Origin: a virus
Lineage: Duplodnaviria; Heunggongvirae; Uroviricota; Caudoviricetes
Length of the DNA stretch: 27,323 nucleotides
Reading direction: 5' to 3' (one strand)
IMG/VR virus record: IMGVR_UViG_2693429713_000014
A program made the position numbers and the translations under genes. Shown one piece after another: positions 1,425-8,472 of the stretch. The notes beneath the pieces were generated by a model, which had not been told where the DNA came from, ran no database searches, and saw nothing but the letters and a program-made list of their open reading frames with translations. Within the stretch, counting starts at the first letter, position 1; the number at the start of each line of letters is the position of its first letter.

Positions 1425-1476
1425 AGGGTTTTATATAAATATGCTCGATATGCTATTAATAGTACCTACATAAATA

Positions 1477-1523
1477 AAACAACGGGCGTGTTATACGCCC
1501 GTTGCAATATTAAACACATGTAG
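1477..1523 (-). terminator. Intrinsic terminator hairpin downstream of the icd 3' fragment (repeat copy 2)
   Basis: Stem aacgggcg / cgcccgtt (1481-1488 and 1496-1503) followed on the minus strand by GTTTTATTTA. Sits just after the icd-fragment stop at 1527-1529. Confidence 0.55.
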
Positions 1524-1526
1524 TGA

Positions 1527-1694
1527 TTACATGTTCTTGATGATCGCATCACCAAATTCTGAACATTTCAGCAGTTTAGCGCCTTCCATCAGACGCTCGA
1601 AGTCATAGGTTACGGTCTTCGCATTGATTGCGCCTTCCATACCTTTAACAATCAGGTCTGCGGCTTCAGTCCAGCCCATATGGCGTAACAGTAG
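1527..1694 (-). pseudogene. icdC: 3' fragment of isocitrate dehydrogenase gene (icdC-like), prophage attachment-site remnant
   Basis: Minus-strand translation gives [54 protein letters not shown]-stop, matching the Icd C-terminus. There is an in-frame stop just upstream at 1695-1697 and no N-terminal part. Confidence 0.85.
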
Positions 1695-2135: not shown

Positions 2136-3104
2136 ATGAATAAGAATTATAAAACGTTTAAACTTGAACTATGGGAGAAGTTTAAGCATCAATGTGCTTA
2201 CTGTGGCACTAAACTTTATGAACCATTGATGGCGGATGTTGATCGTTTTTTCCCAAAATCAAAGTATACTGACTTCCAAGATGCTACAGACAACCTGCTC
2301 ATCGCTTGTAAGGCATGTAGCATGATTAAAAAAGATCAGTTTCCTCTCGATGAAAATGGCAAACCATTACTTCTAAATCCTTTAAATGAAAGTTTTTCAG
2401 AACATATAAAACAAAATAAAAATGGATATTTAGAAGGTTTAACTGAGCGAGGACATGCGACTATAGATATATTACAGTTGAATAGACCTTCATTAATTGA
2501 ACAGCGCATTCTAGATGTTATTGATATGCAGTACTCTGATGATCGAACGCTATCTGAACGAGATGTCTATATGACATTCCAAAATAGTATGCAGAACGCC
2601 ATAAAACTAAATGATGCTCAGTTAAAAATTGATAGCACTTTACAAATACAAATGTCGTATATGCTATATGCCAATACAATAACTTCCTTGGAAACATATT
2701 TATGTGACAGATTTATTTCCCTAATTCATGGTAGCCAAACTAATTTGAGAAATTTTGTTGAAACCTTCAAAGATTACAATACAGAAAAATTCTTACTTTC
2801 TGAATTATTTATAAGGCATGAACAAATAGAGTCTCAAGCGATAGAGTCTATGAAGAGTGTTCTTTATCATAATCTGCCAAAAGTAAGTGGCATGTATCGA
2901 GATACCTTTGGTATTAAATTCCCTGTTTTCACAGAAGTTTATAAAAGCGTGTTAATTAGGCATGACTTAGTTCATCGAGCAGGTAAAACAAAAAATGGTA
3001 ATTTTCATAAGTTAGATTCAGAGTCAGTTAAAGATGTTATCAAAAAATGCTGTGACTTGGTTGAAAAACTAGAAAAAGAGCTTAAAGATTGTGCATCATT
3101 CTAG
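2136..3104 (+). CDS. Hypothetical protein with N-terminal degenerate HNH-like zinc-finger motif and uncharacterised C-terminal domain
   Basis: 322-aa ORF with an AGGA-type RBS. Residues 20-66 read CAYC...DVDRFFP...DNLLIACKAC, i.e. the C-x2-C ... N ... C-x2-C scaffold of HNH with Arg where the catalytic His is expected. AT-rich codon usage. C-terminal region contains R-x4-H (RHDLVH, aa 275-280). Confidence 0.6.
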   Translation: MNKNYKTFKLELWEKFKHQCAYCGTKLYEPLMADVDRFFPKSKYTDFQDATDNLLIACKACSMIKKDQFPLDENGKPLLLNPLNESFSEHIKQNKNGYLEGLTERGHATIDILQLNRPSLIEQRILDVIDMQYSDDRTLSERDVYMTFQNSMQNAIKLNDAQLKIDSTLQIQMSYMLYANTITSLETYLCDRFISLIHGSQTNLRNFVETFKDYNTEKFLLSELFIRHEQIESQAIESMKSVLYHNLPKVSGMYRDTFGIKFPVFTEVYKSVLIRHDLVHRAGKTKNGNFHKLDSESVKDVIKKCCDLVEKLEKELKDCASF

Positions 3105-3286
3105 GTAATTGCCACCAAATCGAAGGTGATCGCGCTTGCGGTCACCAAAAGTAATAAACTATTCATTCCCATTCGATCATCTGAACCAACACAATTTTAT
3201 TTAATAAAGTTGACCTACTTCATTATTTGATACCCATCCAATGTGCGCAAGGGCTGCTTCTGGCACATGGTTACCCTTGATGAGAA

Positions 3287-3417
3287 GGTAGATCACCGCC
3301 ATGGGGTGTCGGGGGCGGAGGTTCAAATCCTCTCGTGCTGACCAAAAATCCTCGAAGAACCAGCCTGTTACGGCTGGTTTTTTTTGCCTGTTTTCTGAAC
3401 GGGGAAGCAATGGGGAA
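3287..3417 (+). repeat. Direct repeat A: 3' ~58 nt of a tRNA-Pro gene (no 5' half) plus downstream terminator and flank
   Basis: 3287-3344 reads ggtag..caccgccatggggtgtcgggggcggaggttcaaatcctctcgtgctgacca: T-arm GGTTCAAATCC, acceptor 3' strand, CCA end. Matches recalled E. coli tRNA-Pro 3' portion. No complementary acceptor 5' strand upstream. Confidence 0.7.
3360..3385 (+). terminator. Rho-independent terminator within repeat A
   Basis: Hairpin ccagcc-tgtta-cggctgg followed by eight T residues. Confidence 0.6.
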
Positions 3418-3607
3418 ATTAGCTTACGGTTGACCCCACTGCGAAAAGCGCAGATTTTTATCAATGGACGTACATAGGGTAGATAAGGCACAATACTGCT
3501 TCAATGTCGTCTGATGGTATTGTAATACTAATTACATCAGATGATTTAACTAGATTAGTTCTTTATAGAAATCATTCTTGAATATTAATTGGCTGACTGA
3601 GGTTTTT

Positions 3608-4393
3608 ATGGATGAAAAATACAGAAGATTTGTTGATGAGGTTGACTTTTCAAGACAATTATTAGGCATAGGGCTCACTTCCCTAAGGAAAGCAAATTTT
3701 GCAAGTAGAGGATTGTATTTTCAAGCATTATCCGGCATCAGTTTAGGATTAGAAAGGCTTATGAAACTTTGCCTTATGCTTGATGATTATAATAAAAATG
3801 GAAAATATACATCACGCAAAAAATTAAGAGATTACGGTCATAACTTAAGCAAGTTATTCAACCTAGTCATTGAGAGAGTTGATTCTCCCTCTGGCTTAAA
3901 TGAAATTCACTACAGAGTGATGGAGTTGTTAACTAATTTTGCAAATTCATCAAGATATAGTAATATTGATTTCATTACTAATGACAACGACAATGATCCC
4001 ATGAAGCAATGGTATAATGAAATCGATAAGAGCATTTACGATGAAATATTAACAAAAAGACAAAAAAATATAATTGATAAAAAATGCGAGCAATACCGAA
4101 GCTATGGTGAAACACTGCCATGCTATGTGCTTGGATATTATGATGAAGACAGAAACCATATAAACTCTGCAGGGGATTTAAATTATTTACTTAAAAGAAG
4201 TGAAATGCTTGCTGGTTATCGCACTTTATTAGTTATTCATATCATAGAATGCATCTATAACATATTAGACTCAATGACAGTTCAAGCAAAAGATAATCAC
4301 TTCCACCATCTTGAATTAGGTCGTTTTTTTGCAACCATCATTTATGGCTCTGATAGAGACAAAATCAATAGAAAAAATTTTATCCGTATGTGA
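3608..4393 (+). CDS. Hypothetical protein (261 aa), AT-rich cargo gene flanked by the tRNA-fragment repeats
   Basis: Track ORF 3578..4393 begins with TTG. The ATG at 3608 has GAGG five nt upstream, so it is the preferred start. No recognisable family motifs. Confidence 0.55.
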   Translation: MDEKYRRFVDEVDFSRQLLGIGLTSLRKANFASRGLYFQALSGISLGLERLMKLCLMLDDYNKNGKYTSRKKLRDYGHNLSKLFNLVIERVDSPSGLNEIHYRVMELLTNFANSSRYSNIDFITNDNDNDPMKQWYNEIDKSIYDEILTKRQKNIIDKKCEQYRSYGETLPCYVLGYYDEDRNHINSAGDLNYLLKRSEMLAGYRTLLVIHIIECIYNILDSMTVQAKDNHFHHLELGRFFATIIYGSDRDKINRKNFIRM

Positions 4394-4471
4394 GACTACG
4401 AAGCGACCGACGAATGATGCTATCAACTTACTGTAGACGCATATAGGCCATCAGAATATTAGCACGACACT

Positions 4472-4588
4472 ATGGGGTGTCGGGGGGCGGAGGTTCAAAT
4501 CCTCTCGTGCCGACCAAAAATCCTCGAAGAACCAGCCTGTTACGGCTGGTTTTTTTGCCTGTTTTCTGAACGGGGAAGCAATGGGGAA
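4472..4588 (+). repeat. Direct repeat B: tRNA-Pro 3' fragment (~45 nt) plus terminator and flank
   Basis: Near-identical to repeat A over about 117 bp (atggggtgtcggggggcggaggttcaaatcctctcgtgccgacca + terminator + tgttttctgaacggggaagcaatgggga). Confidence 0.7.
4532..4556 (+). terminator. Rho-independent terminator within repeat B
   Basis: Same hairpin ccagcctgttacggctgg followed by seven T residues. Confidence 0.6.
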
Positions 4589-4790
4589 TTACAGGGGAAA
4601 AACCCCGTCAAATGTTGCCCCCGTATCGCTAGCACACAATGATTAAGTATCTTTTTCACTTTCGGAATTCATCAATTCACAAAACCATCATTCCGATTTA
4701 CCTTACATGCTCCTTTTAAATCTTTAACGGTGTGCACCACTTTTTCTAACTGCCCTATACTTTCAGTCTGACATACGGCTGGAGGTTTCT

Positions 4791-5459
4791 ATGTGTGGAC
4801 GCTTTTCACAGTCAATGACCCGTGAAGATTATCTTGCCCTTCTCGCTGATGAATCAGAACGCGATATTCCATACGATCCAGAACCCATCGGAAGATTCAA
4901 CGTAGCGCCAGGAACAAAAGTTCTGCTTCTGAGCGAACGTGATGAGCAGTTGCATCTTGATCCAGTTATCTGGGGATACGCCCCCGGTTGGTGGGATAAA
5001 CCGCCGCTCATTAATGCACGGTCTGAAACTGCTGCCACCAGCAGAATGTTTAAACCACTCTGGCAGCATGGCCGCGCAATTTGCTTTGCTGATGGATGGT
5101 ATGAGTGGAAAAAGGAAGGCGACCAAAAACAACCCTACTTTATTCACCGGGCAGACGGTCAGCCGATTTTTATGGCGGCGATCGGCAGCACACCATTCGA
5201 ACGTGGAGATGAAGCAGAAGGTTTCCTGATAGTTACAGCTGCAGCTGACAAAGGACTGGTTGATATTCACGACAGACGACCACTGGTACTGCTACCGGAA
5301 GCCGCGCGTGAATGGATGAGGCAGGATGTTGGAGGGAAAGAAGCAGCGGAAATTGCAGCCGACGGTGTTTTACCGGCTGATAAATTTATATGGCACGCCG
5401 TAACGCGTGCCGTCGGGAATGTGAAAAATCAGGGCGCCGAACTAATAACGCCAATATGA
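4791..5459 (+). CDS. SOS response-associated peptidase (SRAP/YedK family, abasic-site processing protein)
   Basis: 222-aa ORF beginning MCGRF (Cys2 nucleophile typical of SRAP) with GGAGG seven nt upstream. Length and sequence match recalled YedK-type proteins. Confidence 0.8.
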   Translation: MCGRFSQSMTREDYLALLADESERDIPYDPEPIGRFNVAPGTKVLLLSERDEQLHLDPVIWGYAPGWWDKPPLINARSETAATSRMFKPLWQHGRAICFADGWYEWKKEGDQKQPYFIHRADGQPIFMAAIGSTPFERGDEAEGFLIVTAAADKGLVDIHDRRPLVLLPEAAREWMRQDVGGKEAAEIAADGVLPADKFIWHAVTRAVGNVKNQGAELITPI

Positions 5460-5873
<414 letters not shown>

Positions 5874-5875
5874 GG

Positions 5876-6118
5876 CTAAAGTCCTCCGTTTGGATTGAAC
5901 AGCTGAAAGGTTCGGTTCTCGCCTTCCTGCGTTGATACATCGCGGAATGTTGTCACATAACATTCTATCCAATCGTTGGCCTGCTTCATCGTCCAGTGCC
6001 AGTTAACCTTACCCAGTTCCTGGACAAACCGCTGTGTGGTGACAGTCTTCCGGCCATTCGGTTCTCGCTGTATCGAAGCATGCCAGGCTATTTCAATATC
6101 GCTACGTTGTGGCATCAT
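5876..6118 (-). CDS. Small hypothetical protein (81 aa) immediately upstream of the UmuD'-like gene
   Basis: ATGATG at 6118-6113 preceded by aagaagggg RBS. Stop at 5876-5878 lies 2 nt before the UmuD'-like start, suggesting an operon. Function unknown. Confidence 0.45.
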   Translation of the reverse strand: MMPQRSDIEIAWHASIQREPNGRKTVTTQRFVQELGKVNWHWTMKQANDWIECYVTTFRDVSTQEGENRTFQLFNPNGGL

Positions 6119-6563: not shown

Positions 6564-7115
6564 TCAACGCCGCGCAGGAAATTTTTTGTATAGCGTCGAC
6601 ACCCCTACATCATAAATTATAGCCACACGTTTTCTAGACTCACCTGCAGCAATCAACCTTCCAGCCTGAGCCCACTCTTCTGCGGTTAACTTTGGTCGTC
6701 TGCCGCCGATCCGACCATCTTCGCGCGCAGCAGCTAAGCCAGCCCGTGTTCGCTCAACAATAAGCTCTCTTTCCATCTCGGCAAGCGCCCCCATGACATG
6801 AAAGAAAAAGCGCCCCATTGGTGTTGAGGTATCTATACTGTCGGTCAGGCTACGGAAGTTTACCCCTCGCTCCCTCATTTCTTCGACCAGCACGACAAGA
6901 TGCCGCATGCTGCGACCGAGGCGATCCAGCTTCCATACCACCAGCGTATCGCCTTCTGATAGCGTCCTGAGCACTTTTTTTAATCCTGGTCTGTCGGACA
7001 CCTTACCGCTGATCTTATCTTCGAAAATCAGTTCACATCCTGCACACTCGAGCGCGTTTCTTTGCAATGCTGTGTTCTGGTCATTTGTTGATACGCGAAC
7101 ATAGCCAATAAGCAT
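6564..7115 (-). CDS. pin: Serine recombinase, Pin/Gin/Hin-family DNA invertase
   Basis: N-terminus MLIGYVRVSTNDQN with the catalytic Ser motif; closely resembles e14 Pin. Start set at the internal Met (7115) with a GGGG RBS rather than the track start at 7151. Confidence 0.9.
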   Translation of the reverse strand: MLIGYVRVSTNDQNTALQRNALECAGCELIFEDKISGKVSDRPGLKKVLRTLSEGDTLVVWKLDRLGRSMRHLVVLVEEMRERGVNFRSLTDSIDTSTPMGRFFFHVMGALAEMERELIVERTRAGLAAAREDGRIGGRRPKLTAEEWAQAGRLIAAGESRKRVAIIYDVGVSTLYKKFPARR

Positions 7116-7170
7116 GGTAGATCCCCCTGACAAAAGCAGGAATGATGCCATTTGCTCGTTATTTCTGCAT

Positions 7171-7200
7171 TTTCATAAACGTTGGTTTGGGAGAAGGTGC
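7171..7200. repeat. Invertase crossover site, left (inverted repeat partner of 8911-8940)
   Basis: tttcataaacgttggtttgggagaaggtgc. The 19-bp core ttggtttgggagaaggtgc (7182-7200) is a perfect inverted repeat of 8911-8929, and 25 of 30 positions match over the extended site. Confidence 0.7.
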
Positions 7201-7477
7201 TAACTGGGTTATGTTACCTGGAGGAATGATAATTCAGCGTGTTTATCTTGGATTTCCTATTGGCACTAATGTAAGACATATAACTTTCCCCCGGTCGTTT
7301 ACAACAACGAACTATTCCATCTCAATTAACTGGAATGATATCGGTACTGTAACAACTGAAACACAATCACCAGCAAATGTGGCGGTTGTTCATCAAACAA
7401 AATCATTAACAGGGGCCAGCATCTGGCAGGCAGGTCCCGGGGGATTTAATGTGGACATTATAGCGGTGGGGTATTGA
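7182..7477 (+). CDS. Alternative tail-fibre C-terminal cassette (silent in this orientation; no own start)
   Basis: Reading frame continues through the crossover core, encoding GLGEGA as in the expressed fibre. Followed directly by an alternative Tfa gene. Mirrors the Sv' arrangement of Mu G / e14 P segments. Confidence 0.55.
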
Positions 7478-7478
7478 T

Positions 7479-7907
7479 ATGTACGTATGGAGCGCTAAAG
7501 CAAATGGCTTTTTCCCCATATCGGAGAAAGAAAAATTTGAGGCATCAGGTCTGTGGCCTGATGATGGTGTAATAGTCAGTGAGGAAGAACATAAAAAGTT
7601 ATTTATGGATATTCCACCAGGAAAACAGATTGGAACACTGAATGGAAAACCAGCACTGATAGATATTCCTCAGCCGACCAAAAAGGAATTAATAGCTATT
7701 GCTGAAGTTAAAAAATCCCAATTACGGGAAAAGGCTGACAGTGAAATATCCTGGCGTCAGGATGCTGTTGATGCTGATATCGCAACTGATGAAGAAGCTA
7801 CAACTCTCACCCAATGGAAGAAATACCGTGTGCTGCTGATGCGTGTTGATACGTCAACAGCACCCGATATTGAATGGCCTACGCCTCCGGCAGTTCAGGC
7901 CAGATGA
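7479..7907 (+). CDS. Tail fibre assembly protein (alternative copy, Tfa')
   Basis: 142-aa ORF with a Tfa-like C-terminus (...WKKYRVLLMRVDTSTAPDIEWPTPP) similar to the minus-strand Tfa. Confidence 0.75.
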   Translation: MYVWSAKANGFFPISEKEKFEASGLWPDDGVIVSEEEHKKLFMDIPPGKQIGTLNGKPALIDIPQPTKKELIAIAEVKKSQLREKADSEISWRQDAVDADIATDEEATTLTQWKKYRVLLMRVDTSTAPDIEWPTPPAVQAR

Positions 7908-8472
7908 CATCCGGCGCGGTGCTGGTATCTGTTGCCGTCACCGCGTCAATGTAATCCAGCACGGCGTTAAGTCGGGTTGTTTCTGCCTGAGTCAGTTTCC
8001 GTCCGGCCTGTAATTTCAGCTGAATCAGACTAATGGAAGCCATTGCTGCATCAATCAGTGACTGGCGCTGTGCTTCTGCCGCGTCTACTGCGGCACTGTG
8101 TTGTGCCTCAGTGTCTGTCACCCATTTCTCACCATCCCATTTATCGTATGGCGTTAACGGTGAAAGCGTGACATAACCGTCTTTGATGGCACCGATATAA
8201 TCCACTGTAACAGCTGCACCATTTTCGATTGAGTAAACAGTCTCATTGCGATGGTCTTCCTCATGGCTCCATCCCTTACCTGTAAATACCGTCACTCTTC
8301 CCAGAATGTTTTCGCCCGGGTCAATACCAGTTGAACAGGCGGGCATACTTACGCCAGTATTAATATATTCATCAGACCAGCCCGTATACTCAGATGTTTC
8401 AGCATCATAATAAAAACAACGCATATCGCCCGGCACTGTAGCCAGCCCATTTTCATCAAAAACAGGTTTCAT
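7879..8472 (-). CDS. Tail fibre assembly protein (Tfa, currently expressed orientation)
   Basis: 197-aa ORF; C-terminus ...DTSTAPDVIWPELPEA. Start overlaps the fibre gene stop. Confidence 0.75.
   Translation of the reverse strand: MKPVFDENGLATVPGDMRCFYYDAETSEYTGWSDEYINTGVSMPACSTGIDPGENILGRVTVFTGKGWSHEEDHRNETVYSIENGAAVTVDYIGAIKDGYVTLSPLTPYDKWDGEKWVTDTEAQHSAAVDAAEAQRQSLIDAAMASISLIQLKLQAGRKLTQAETTRLNAVLDYIDAVTATDTSTAPDVIWPELPEA

Follow-up and report, generated by a model that had tools for sequence, protein, structure and literature searches.

In the attachment of e14 and phage 21 to icd, the phage carries a substitute 3′ end of its target gene. The attP of phage lambda consists of a core inverted repeat and three tandem arm-type sites in the P' arm, and tRNA pseudogenes at prophage ends are annotated in K-12 (ptwF and pawZ). 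Cis-mobilizable, att-flanked remnants that lack an integrase and are left after accretion and deletion (CIMEs) are described for ICESt1/ICESt3 of Streptococcus thermophilus, and phage morons and prophage defence hotspots are known from the variable loci of P2 and P4. For integration into tRNA genes, the anticodon loop is a classical crossover position, and the Islander/TIGER work provides a framework for such tDNA att sites and for tandem arrays, which are counted there (PMC4383910). Our literature search on proL prophage integration or relic attP sites returned general framework papers only.

The window analysed here, 27,323 nt of viral DNA, is the icd-proximal end of an e14/SfV-like prophage and contains two direct repeats that carry part of a tRNA-Pro gene (Table 1; all positions are those of the window). 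Both are probably vestigial att sites of a family of tyrosine integrases specific for the anticodon loop of proL, and they lie in a prophage whose working integration module is directed at icd. As a trace of mosaic evolution among phages the pair is unremarkable; features of this kind are known, and no new mechanism is revealed. As at other anticodon-loop tDNA att sites, an element-borne tRNA 3′ fragment restores the gene, a tyrosine integrase lies next to attP in the active relatives, and a displaced fragment is found at the far end. The window differs in that its fragments lie inside a prophage at icd, have neither a cognate integrase nor a full tRNA partner and delimit no island, and in that the identity block reaches ~70 nt past the CCA, spanning a replacement terminator and arm motifs.

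Table 1 Features around the tRNA-Pro repeats, in window coordinates
Feature	Position	Strand	Remarks
Displaced icd 3′ end and its terminator	1474..1690	-	Current att junction of the prophage
PtuB-like HNH endonuclease gene	2136..3104	+	AT-rich cargo between the icd att site and copy 1
Copy 1	3254..3417	+	Decayed full-length tRNA-Pro(GGG) pseudogene, phage-type terminator and arm
Unique 113-nt spacer right of copy 1	3418..3530	+	Small terminator-like hairpin at 3439-3453
Moron-like gene unit	3531..4393	+	~77 nt of conserved upstream sequence and CDS 3608-4393
Left (P-type) arm of copy 2	4394..4471	+	Unique to the two-copy arrangement
Copy 2	4472..4700	+	tRNA-Pro 3′ part 4472-4516 (anticodon loop to CCA), phage-type terminator 4526-4558
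SRAP (YedK-like) gene	4791..5459	+	First gene right of the proL-type attP in sibling prophages

Two direct repeats match the 3′ part of proL

The repeats lie at 3301-3417 and 4472-4588 (117/118 nt), are 97-98% identical (BLAST E ~1e-49) and have a start-to-start spacing of 1171-1172 bp. Each starts in the anticodon loop of E. coli proL, reaches the CCA and continues into a terminator hairpin and then GGGGAA motifs. The match to proL, which is tRNA-Pro(GGG), extends in both copies from anticodon-loop position 32/33 via the T-arm and the 3′ acceptor strand to the CCA, and copy 2 differs from the gene at one base of the tRNA segment. BLAST and this alignment to the chromosomal gene bear out the initial annotation, which had described two direct repeats, each with the 3′ portion of a tRNA-Pro gene and a terminator. 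The same strong hairpin with a T-run (-17.5 kcal/mol, z = -4.2) follows the tRNA part of each copy, at ~3354-3387 in copy 1. The hexamer GGGGAA occurs five times on the plus strand of the 27-kb window, each time inside one of the two copies: twice in copy 1 (3401 and 3412), whose arm ends before the third motif, and three times in copy 2, in 11-bp phase (4572, 4583 and 4594).

As had been proposed, neither copy is a functional tRNA. ARAGORN finds 0 tRNA genes in the window, and an Rfam scan of the window gives no match at the gathering score; the tRNA model scores 20.9 bits on copy 1 against a gathering score of 29 and does not match copy 2 at all. Minimum-free-energy folding of copy 1 yields no cloverleaf (z = -0.13), and the fold lacks an acceptor stem. 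The tRNA-Pro 3′ segments (Pro') have no tRNA role today. These results also weigh against a role as RNA, in which the HNH and HEPN-fold mRNAs would end in these segments as tRNA-like 3′ tails that signal processing or stability, or that act on a tRNA-directed HEPN nuclease as decoys or substrates. Each copy does lie directly 3′ of a plus-strand gene and 5′ of a terminator, and the intervening protein has the HEPN fold, which is used by anticodon nucleases. Besides the lacking cloverleaf and the low or absent Rfam scores, however, relatives of the gene occur without such flanks and relics of the segment without the gene, and attP function in sibling phages explains the sequence conservation; we consider a functional RNA extremely improbable.

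The two copies have different left arms

The anticodon loop is where the identity between the copies starts (CTATGGGG in 12 of 14 assemblies), and their left arms differ, as is expected from a crossover in that loop. The earlier statement that both copies lack a 5′ half holds for copy 2 but not for copy 1, where the whole proL gene aligns to 3254-3345 with 82.8% identity. Here tRNA positions 1-76 correspond to about 3261-3344, and the identity with copy 2 starts at 3301. The 5′ part contains an acceptor-like TGGCACA (3261-3267) and a degenerate D-arm region that is ~9 nt longer; copy 1 also lacks 1 nt of the proL variable loop and carries a C>T substitution in its acceptor strand. Copy 1 is a whole decayed tRNA-Pro joined to a phage arm, resembling an attL or pseudo-attB. 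The 113-nt spacer that follows it has no homologue outside the two-copy arrangement in genomes, IMG/VR or metagenomes, and may be the remainder of a deleted element's arm.

A whole tRNA in copy 1 would also be expected if a proL prophage had excised aberrantly, as in lambda gal/bio, and taken the rebuilt tRNA-Pro with it. Copy 1 would then be the captured and since decayed gene, and loss of int would have forced the acquisition of the icd module. The missing proL-type int is consistent with this, as is the alignment to the entire tRNA including the 5′ acceptor strand, which copy 1 shares with relics in UTI89 and AR435. Upstream of copy 1, however, there is no similarity to the yejM-proL spacer (score 21 against a shuffle mean of 19.9, with 377/1000 shuffles as good or better), and the shared upstream motif CTTCTGGCACAT differs from the E. 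coli proL upstream sequence. Capture alone would moreover leave copy 2 and the intervening gene unexplained, and we regard it as an unlikely origin.

Copy 2 has a perfect core inverted repeat (CGACAC at 4465-4470, spacer TATGGG, GTGTCG at 4477-4482), which resembles core-type integrase binding sites. Its arm runs on into SRAP and is 93-94% identical to the attL side of a proL-integrated sibling. The position of SRAP in sibling prophages shows copy 2 to be continuous with the arm of a proL phage, and the SRAP, UmuD-like (S24) and DinI genes that follow are those flanking tRNA-Pro in proL-integrated siblings. By these features copy 2 is attP-like. GGGGAA occurs at +85/+96/+107 in every proL-type attP examined, and its position and conservation suggest that the motifs are putative P' arm-type integrase sites. 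The arrangement would parallel that of lambda attP, with a core inverted repeat round the overlap (CGACAC/GTGTCG) and three phased GGGGAA motifs at a fixed distance on one arm, whereas the sequences are unrelated to those of lambda.

Relation of the repeats to proL-integrated prophages

The terminator in the fragments had been taken to be that of the tRNA-Pro gene itself. The hairpin is indeed common to both copies, but hairpin and flank are phage-borne and not those of chromosomal proL. The terminator of the copies reads ACCAGCC..GGCTGG T7-8, compared to AACCAACC..GGTTGG at native proL, and the flank is 80-81% identical to the K-12 proL flank compared to 94-95% for the tRNA-Pro arm of a sibling prophage in strain 100181. 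They represent the attP arm of a proL-targeting integrase family rather than native proL downstream sequence.

Integrases of the proL-targeting family, a search for which had been suggested earlier, are encoded in the free phages Flotzy and Eeyore and in strain 100181. The order of int and Pro' in the two free phages and the junctions in 100181 support the earlier reading of the repeats as att-site relics of a tRNA-Pro-targeting element. Strain 100181 carries a complete sibling prophage in proL, in the order tRNA-Pro, SRAP-umuDC-DinI, pinE, the same tail and head genes, int, a displaced Pro' with native flank, and yejO, so that one end consists of tRNA-Pro and phage arm and the other of Pro' and native flank. 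Its integrase has an annotated Arm DNA-binding domain. In Flotzy and Eeyore the Pro' segment follows directly after int, and their integrases are 77% identical to that of 100181. The Pro'-SRAP junction is found at proL itself in about 13 genomes. A proL-type attP brings the tRNA 3′ part, so that the tRNA gene is rebuilt upon integration, together with a replacement terminator of its own and a P' arm in which three GGGGAA motifs are spaced 11 bp apart. The proL gene can be occupied in tandem, in UTAK-5 by a satellite and then a prophage. Relics of the same kind as in the window are present in siblings integrated elsewhere, namely in UTI89 (at ssrA), AR435, ECONIH5 and Gifsy-2.

The icd site and the host

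The window prophage has an e14-type integrase that is 25% identical to the proL type; a nearby integrase remnant is also e14-type, and no proL-type integrase is found in the prophage. The current working att corresponds to that of e14 and phage 21 in that the 3′ end of the target and its terminator are replaced, and differs from the proL sites in its protein-coding target and in its integrase, which is of a different family. Another copy of the icd terminator, at 591-663, bounds an 810-bp remnant, and the resulting att-remnant-att nesting, which includes a decayed integrase, shows the same nested-relic pattern as the Pro' pair. The host AH01 has an intact, unoccupied proL between yejM and yejO, 1.1 Mb from the prophage, which rules out that the window holds the sole host proL copy. 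With only an e14-type integrase in the prophage and host proL intact and empty, both Pro' sites are vestigial, and for lack of a proL-type integrase and an occupied proL, excision of the repeat unit in the native host is unlikely. The hairpin of copy 1 lies downstream of the HNH gene; the two hairpins most likely act as transcription terminators for the HNH gene and for the gene of the HEPN-fold protein, and homologous recombination can use the 117-bp repeats as substrates.

Distribution and origin of the two-copy arrangement

The two-copy layout is identical throughout 8 complete E. coli genomes, 14 other assemblies or contigs, 3 IMG/VR contigs and 1 metagenome contig. Among the complete E. 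coli genomes, only the same 8 contain the HNH region and the cassette, and the identical 261-aa protein encoded between the copies occurs in 10 distinct contexts, all with the order HNH-cassette-SRAP and a spacing of 1172 bp. A single-copy empty site (HNH-Pro'-SRAP) is absent from 27 assemblies or contigs, junction and spacer pattern searches of IMG/VR and metagenomes gave no donor phage with the 113-nt spacer or the left arm of copy 2, and the cassette was found neither at proL nor at another location in the collections searched.

Tandem site-specific integration followed by deletion is the likeliest origin of the pair. Through site-specific recombination, a closely related proL-type element would have integrated beside or into the resident Pro' site to give a tandem array. 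Later deletion would have removed nearly the whole incoming element, so that two att copies now enclose 1.05 kb with a single HEPN-fold gene. The backbone would also have lost its proL int module at some stage, in exchange for an icd-type module and new cargo (HNH). The initial annotation had offered a relic of tandem integration as one possible origin, and this is what fits best, given the start of identity in the anticodon loop, the tandem in UTAK-5 and the nesting at icd, with no intermediate found to set beside them. The 1.05-kb leftover resembles a CIME-like remnant: two direct att copies surround a short stretch without an integrase, and the UTAK-5 array and the nested remnants at the prophage's own icd site are of the same kind. 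It differs in that the array lies within a phage genome and not at the chromosomal target, and in that mobility of the remnant is seen in none of the assemblies examined.

The 98% identity between the copies exceeds that of either copy to any other attP and could stem from recent duplication or gene conversion without a second integration. Such a duplication might have arisen by RecA-dependent Campbell-type insertion of DNA, circular or linear, with Pro' and the HEPN-fold gene, or sibling phages might have recombined unequally or illegitimately. In either case the repeats would still be old attP sites, and the pair would not be the footprint of site-specific tandem integration. Consistent with this, the copies share derived states found in no other attP, the right type of integrase is absent nearby, and one assembly, in which copy 1 bears the copy-2 G6 run, suggests that gene conversion between the two has taken place. 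The identity begins, however, exactly at the anticodon-loop crossover between unrelated left arms, and these arms differ in type (a whole pseudo-tRNA and an attP-like inverted repeat), as would attL-like and attP/attR-like products. Site-specific tandem arrays are, in addition, documented both at proL and at icd. We therefore think an integrase-free duplication rather improbable and prefer tandem integration with later deletion.

The pair provides a clear, datable trace of how integration modules are replaced among e14/SfV-like and lambdoid phages of E. coli and Salmonella. Siblings that share their virion genes are found in proL, icd or ssrA, and the old attP is kept by those that have gone from proL. 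The relic marks the border between conserved SOS-related genes (SRAP, UmuD-like and DinI) and a fast-changing zone of nuclease and defence-like cargo. Putative defence-like genes lie to the left of the Pro' relics in several prophages: GIY-YIG in UTI89, SMODS/SLATT in AR435, and HNH and the HEPN-fold protein in the window. The Pro' core and the GGGGAA triplet offer a sequence handle for finding such cargo hotspots and for studying the proL-specific integrase, which might serve as a tool. Annotation calls for caution, as such tRNA fragments are neither tRNA genes nor the ends of islands.

The gene between the copies

The repeats had been described as flanking one gene, and the 1054-bp interval does contain only the gene for the 261-aa protein and no integrase. 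The protein is all-alpha with a HEPN fold, and the region of the gene unit is AT-rich (~32-35% GC). H78 and R116 are invariant, but no canonical Rx4-6H motif is identified; the match of the window protein to Pfam HEPN is weak (E = 0.17), and PADLOC gives no match. We regard it as a putative, defence-like protein. The unit resembles morons and the P2 and P4 hotspots in that one AT-rich gene, together with an upstream region of its own and a terminator, stands between conserved phage blocks, but its terminator is borrowed from an old attP and its defence role is putative.

Relatives of the gene occupy variable slots of P2 prophages (the gpS/gpV gap and the position after ogr) and the cargo regions of P4-like elements, and they have neither Pro' flanks nor other long direct repeats. 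DNA homology to these loci is confined to 3531-4394. The proposal of a cassette moved from a tRNA-Pro locus stands only in part: the gene does move elsewhere, without these flanks, and the flanks are those of a phage attP and not of chromosomal proL. An integron-type gene cassette is ruled out, as there is no IntI and the flanks are tRNA-derived attP sequences and not attC.

One could still imagine the 1.17-kb unit, an attP-like site with the HEPN-fold gene, as a cassette without its own integrase, inserted and excised in trans by the integrases of proL-type phages; old Pro' sites would then act in an integron-like way as landing pads for defence genes. If true, temperate phages would have an integron-like route for swapping defence genes beside a fossil att site. 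The core is intact in both copies, defence-like cargo adjoins Pro' relics in several prophages, and members of the gene family have moved among hotspots in P2 prophages and P4-like elements. The arrangement shows no polymorphism, however, with neither an empty site nor another location of the unit in the collections searched; the gene's relatives lack Pro' flanks, copy 1 lacks the third GGGGAA motif, and neither the prophage nor host proL provides a cognate integrase. A currently mobile cassette is, in our judgement, very unlikely, and the remnant of a tandem array remains the preferred reading of the unit.

Two hypothetical proteins beside int in 100181 and a 262-aa hypothetical protein next to ssrA in UTI89 are unrelated to the 261-aa protein. 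A profile scan of genome contigs with the alignment of the protein family detects one distant locus, in Gallibacterium.

Repeat pair in the icd-integrated prophage

The window is the icd-proximal end of a ~42-kb e14/SfV-like prophage and has 99.7–100% matches in eight complete E. coli chromosomes. The other end of the prophage, adjoining intact icd, carries an e14-type integrase, xisE and a decayed second integrase. Three direct-repeat blocks from the repeat search make up a single 117/118-nt repeat, whose copies differ by one base in the length of a G-run and of a T-run. The two copies are spaced 1171–1172 bp apart and are 97.5% identical (BLAST, E ~1e-49). Both align with the E. coli K-12 tRNA-Pro(GGG) gene proL; the match starts at position 32/33 in the anticodon loop and continues over the variable loop, T-arm and 3' acceptor strand to CCA, and each copy has a strong hairpin and T-run on its 3' side (–17.5 kcal/mol, z = –4.2). 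On this evidence the pair is real, far beyond chance, and the repeat search, BLAST and the proL alignment bear out the initial annotation of direct repeats with a tRNA-Pro T-arm, acceptor 3' strand and CCA. Its view that neither copy is a functional tRNA also stands: ARAGORN found no tRNA genes in the window, where there were also no Rfam matches at gathering thresholds. Considered as a tRNA, copy 1 scores 20.9 bits in Rfam, below the gathering score of 29, and its minimum free energy fold lacks an acceptor stem (z = –0.13).

Features of the window and of comparison loci (positions after an L label are locus coordinates)
Feature	Position (strand)	Neighborhood
ycgX		leftmost in gene order
icd relics	591–663 and 1474–1690 (displaced icd 3' end)	ORF 1101–1424 between; L017 12414–12800 at other end
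PtuB-like HNH endonuclease	2136–3104	left of copy 1
Repeat blocks, copy 1 / copy 2	3301–3315 / 4472–4486; 3311–3384 / 4483–4556; 3379–3417 / 4550–4588	
GGGGAA	3401, 3412; 4572, 4583, 4594 (+)	copy 1; copy 2
261-aa ORF	3608–4393	between copy 1 and copy 2
SRAP	4791–5459	right of copy 2
S24/UmuD-like gene, then DinI, then pinE	5460–5972 (–) (S24/UmuD-like)	right of SRAP
Tail-fiber / tail-fiber-assembly ORFs	7142–7907 (+); 7879–8472 (–)	by pinE
Tail fibers, Mu-like baseplate and tail genes, HK97-like head genes		right of pinE
IS421 in SRAP	L001 21786–23124; L002 3515–4853	
Relic, UTI89 (ssrA)		GIY-YIG protein and hypotheticals, relic, DinI
Relic, AR435	L024 6001–6275 (relic pair)	non-proL integrase, SMODS/SLATT genes, relic, lambdoid tail fiber genes
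Relic, ECONIH5		prophage edge, abuts pdeF
Relic, Gifsy-2 (Salmonella)	L006 1507–2347 (NC_010393.1 ~43.5–44.3 kb)	Pro' relic, then unannotated SRAP-like sequence

A phage-type flank and a proL-targeting family

The native proL 3' flank reads AAAAAACCAACC..GGTTGGTTTTTTT, then ATATCTGCA (alignment A1); in its place both window copies carry GAAGAACCAGCC..GGCTGGTTTTTTT, then GCCTGTTTTCTGAACGGGGAAGCAATGGGGAA. The latter, phage-type flank lies directly 3' of tRNA-Pro in strains with a proL prophage (100181, GE3, the AR_0118 group and LP50-1), and immediately follows int in the free phages Flotzy and Eeyore and in Phi06_2987. Pairwise identity across the 117-nt block is 98% between the two copies, 94–95% with the attL side of 100181 and 80–81% with native K-12. 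Judged from these alignments, the flank of both copies is phage DNA, not chromosomal proL flank. The initial annotation was right that the copies have the same terminator hairpin, but the hairpin is of phage type and not the chromosomal proL terminator.

The complete prophage of 100181 shares pinE, tail, head and terminase genes with the window, and its attL side has 93.4% identity to window 4472–5452 (copy 2 to SRAP). Its order is yejM, tRNA-Pro, SRAP, umuC, umuD, DinI, HipA ... int, two hypothetical genes, Pro' (a tRNA-Pro 3' fragment), yejO; the displaced Pro' at the far end has the native terminator. The 398-aa integrase, with an Arm DNA-binding domain, is 77% identical to those of Flotzy and Eeyore and only 25% to that of the window prophage, in which the integrase remnant is likewise e14-type; the cognate proL-type integrase is therefore absent from the window prophage. 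By comparison of their sequences, 100181, Flotzy and Eeyore define a proL-targeting integrase and attP family, assigned to the anticodon-loop crossover class described in PMC4383910. In the host strain AH01, proL is intact and unoccupied. The arm adjoining int in Flotzy and Eeyore, and the sibling prophage in proL of 100181, strengthen the earlier suggestion that the repeats are att relics of a tRNA-Pro-targeting element.

In the 100181 attL and in the attPs of Flotzy, Eeyore and Phi06, GGGGAA recurs every 11 bp (+85, +96 and +107, counted from the T-arm), and all five plus-strand occurrences in the 27-kb window fall within the copies. The P' sites of lambda are arm-type integrase sites, and by analogy the motifs are probably sites of the same type. 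The repeat ends between motifs 2 and 3, so the arm of copy 1 is truncated. Copy 2 has a perfect inverted repeat across its left arm and tRNA part (CGACAC, TATGGG, GTGTCG) that resembles core-type binding sites, and as a whole it looks like an attP-type sequence.

A 5' half, which the initial annotation had held to be missing from both copies, persists in decayed form in copy 1: window 3254–3345 aligns to the whole proL gene at 82.8% (BLAST). Copy 1 has an acceptor-like TGGCACA at 3261–3267 and a degenerate D-arm region ~9 nt longer than the native one (alignment A3), GGTAGATCACCGCC against native GGTAGCGCACCGTC (11/14 positions match), a 1-nt deletion in the variable loop and a C>T substitution in the 3' acceptor strand. 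Alignment upstream of it found no similarity to the yejM–proL spacer. Its left arm (TTCTGGCACAT...) recurs in UTI89 and many ST95 strains, where a sibling prophage at ssrA carries it as part of a relic; AR435 has a more decayed version. With a whole tRNA plus phage arm, copy 1 resembles an attL or pseudo-attB in type. A 96-aa GTG-start ORF on the opposite strand (3201–3491, –) overlaps copy 1, and small annotated 'hypothetical proteins' similarly span attP in Flotzy and Eeyore; all are most likely spurious calls over att DNA.

Relics with the phage-type arm also occur in prophages integrated elsewhere (UTI89, AR435, ECONIH5 and Gifsy-2), and time and again the Pro' relic lies where conserved SOS-linked genes give way to variable cargo. 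In Gifsy-2 the relic and SRAP-like sequence, near sseI, are 75% identical to window 4482–5324. AR435 has two adjacent relics, a 100181-type attP and, ~60 nt further, a strongly decayed whole pseudo-tRNA, between CBASS-like SMODS/SLATT cargo and the tail fiber genes.

Origin of the pair

Identity between the copies starts in the anticodon loop, where 12/14 assemblies read CTATGGGG in both, while their left arms are unrelated; this combination is, at sequence level, the signature of an att-core crossover. In UTAK-5 two elements occupy proL in tandem: yejM and tRNA-Pro are followed first by int and an 11-kb satellite and then by Pro', SRAP and the prophage. The satellite-like element (L022/L015), lying between tRNA-Pro and the sibling prophage, has its own integrase, a primase, a capsid-protease fusion and TerS; its duplicated Pro' segment begins in the T-loop, and therefore a second integrase class uses another sublocation of the tRNA. 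The same nesting, att–remnant–att, is present in the window prophage at icd, its current site: 810 bp of remnant DNA separate an icd' fragment from a second copy of the icd terminator, and at the opposite prophage end a decayed e14-type integrase is enclosed by icd and one more icd' copy. Some assemblies are polylysogens at icd. In several assemblies (L025–L027, L029; 438–2072) the icd' fragment and HNH gene have the xis-int of another phage as their immediate left neighbor, which indicates polylysogeny with two e14-like prophages in tandem there. The displaced icd 3' end and terminator are 95.9% identical to icd, and the second terminator copy 78%; the remnant's 107-aa gene is phrog_4407, with a precomputed PmrD match in L034.

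The simplest history, we infer, would start with a close relative that shared the attP and inserted in or next to the resident Pro' site; nearly all of it would then have been deleted, leaving 1.05 kb, and the backbone's proL int module would have been replaced by an icd module with new cargo. Copy 1 and copy 2 are each other's closest relatives, consistent with the alternative that RecA-mediated duplication or insertion, or later gene conversion, may have made the two copies. The 8 complete genomes, 14 further assemblies and contigs, IMG/VR and the metagenome scan yielded no empty site, single copy or donor form. As a feature the pair is of a well-known kind: tDNA-derived att relics, tandem arrays that then decay, and integration-module mosaicism.

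Cargo genes and present role

The copies have no role as tRNAs. Since each hairpin lies directly downstream of a plus-strand gene (HNH and HEPN-fold), they probably serve as terminators insulating these cargo genes. The 117-bp repeats could allow RecA-dependent loss of the ~1.17-kb cassette; no such deletion was seen. The 261-aa HEPN-fold product has no match in Pfam, PADLOC or PHROGs and belongs to a small family (26 clusters; Enterobacterales, Aeromonas and Pasteurellaceae). Relatives occupy the gpS/gpV gap of a P2-like Klebsiella prophage, a position after ogr in a P2-like Proteus prophage, cargo regions of P4-like or defense-island-like elements, and a site adjoining hicAB in Xenorhabdus; none of these loci has Pro' flanks or comparable repeats, and DNA homology to the cassette is limited to window 3531–4394. 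That the cassette is trans-mobilizable, with fossil attP sites as landing pads, is very improbable, and is the only reading that would raise the importance of the feature; the pair is useful mainly as an evolutionary marker and annotation aid.

The HNH endonuclease stands alone (PADLOC PtuB, 1e-23, plus a type IV restriction-like match), with no PtuA partner present. Its C-terminal domain matches phrog_29321, with a faint RiboL-PSP HEPN match; it occupies the mcrA position of K-12 e14 and occurs only in the same 8 genomes as the window prophage. The polymerase subunit appears to have been lost from the window prophage, because the proL-integrated sibling has umuD and umuC between SRAP and DinI and the window the UmuD-like gene alone. 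The pinE invertase and adjoining, oppositely oriented tail-fiber ORFs (6564–8472) are the usual invertible host-range segment. Strains C1 and Ecol_545, in their icd prophage, and LP50-1, in its proL-linked copy, all have SRAP interrupted by IS421 at one position (window 4973–4984) with an identical 12-bp overlap; this suggests either a hotspot for insertion or an exchange of alleles between the prophages of the two loci.
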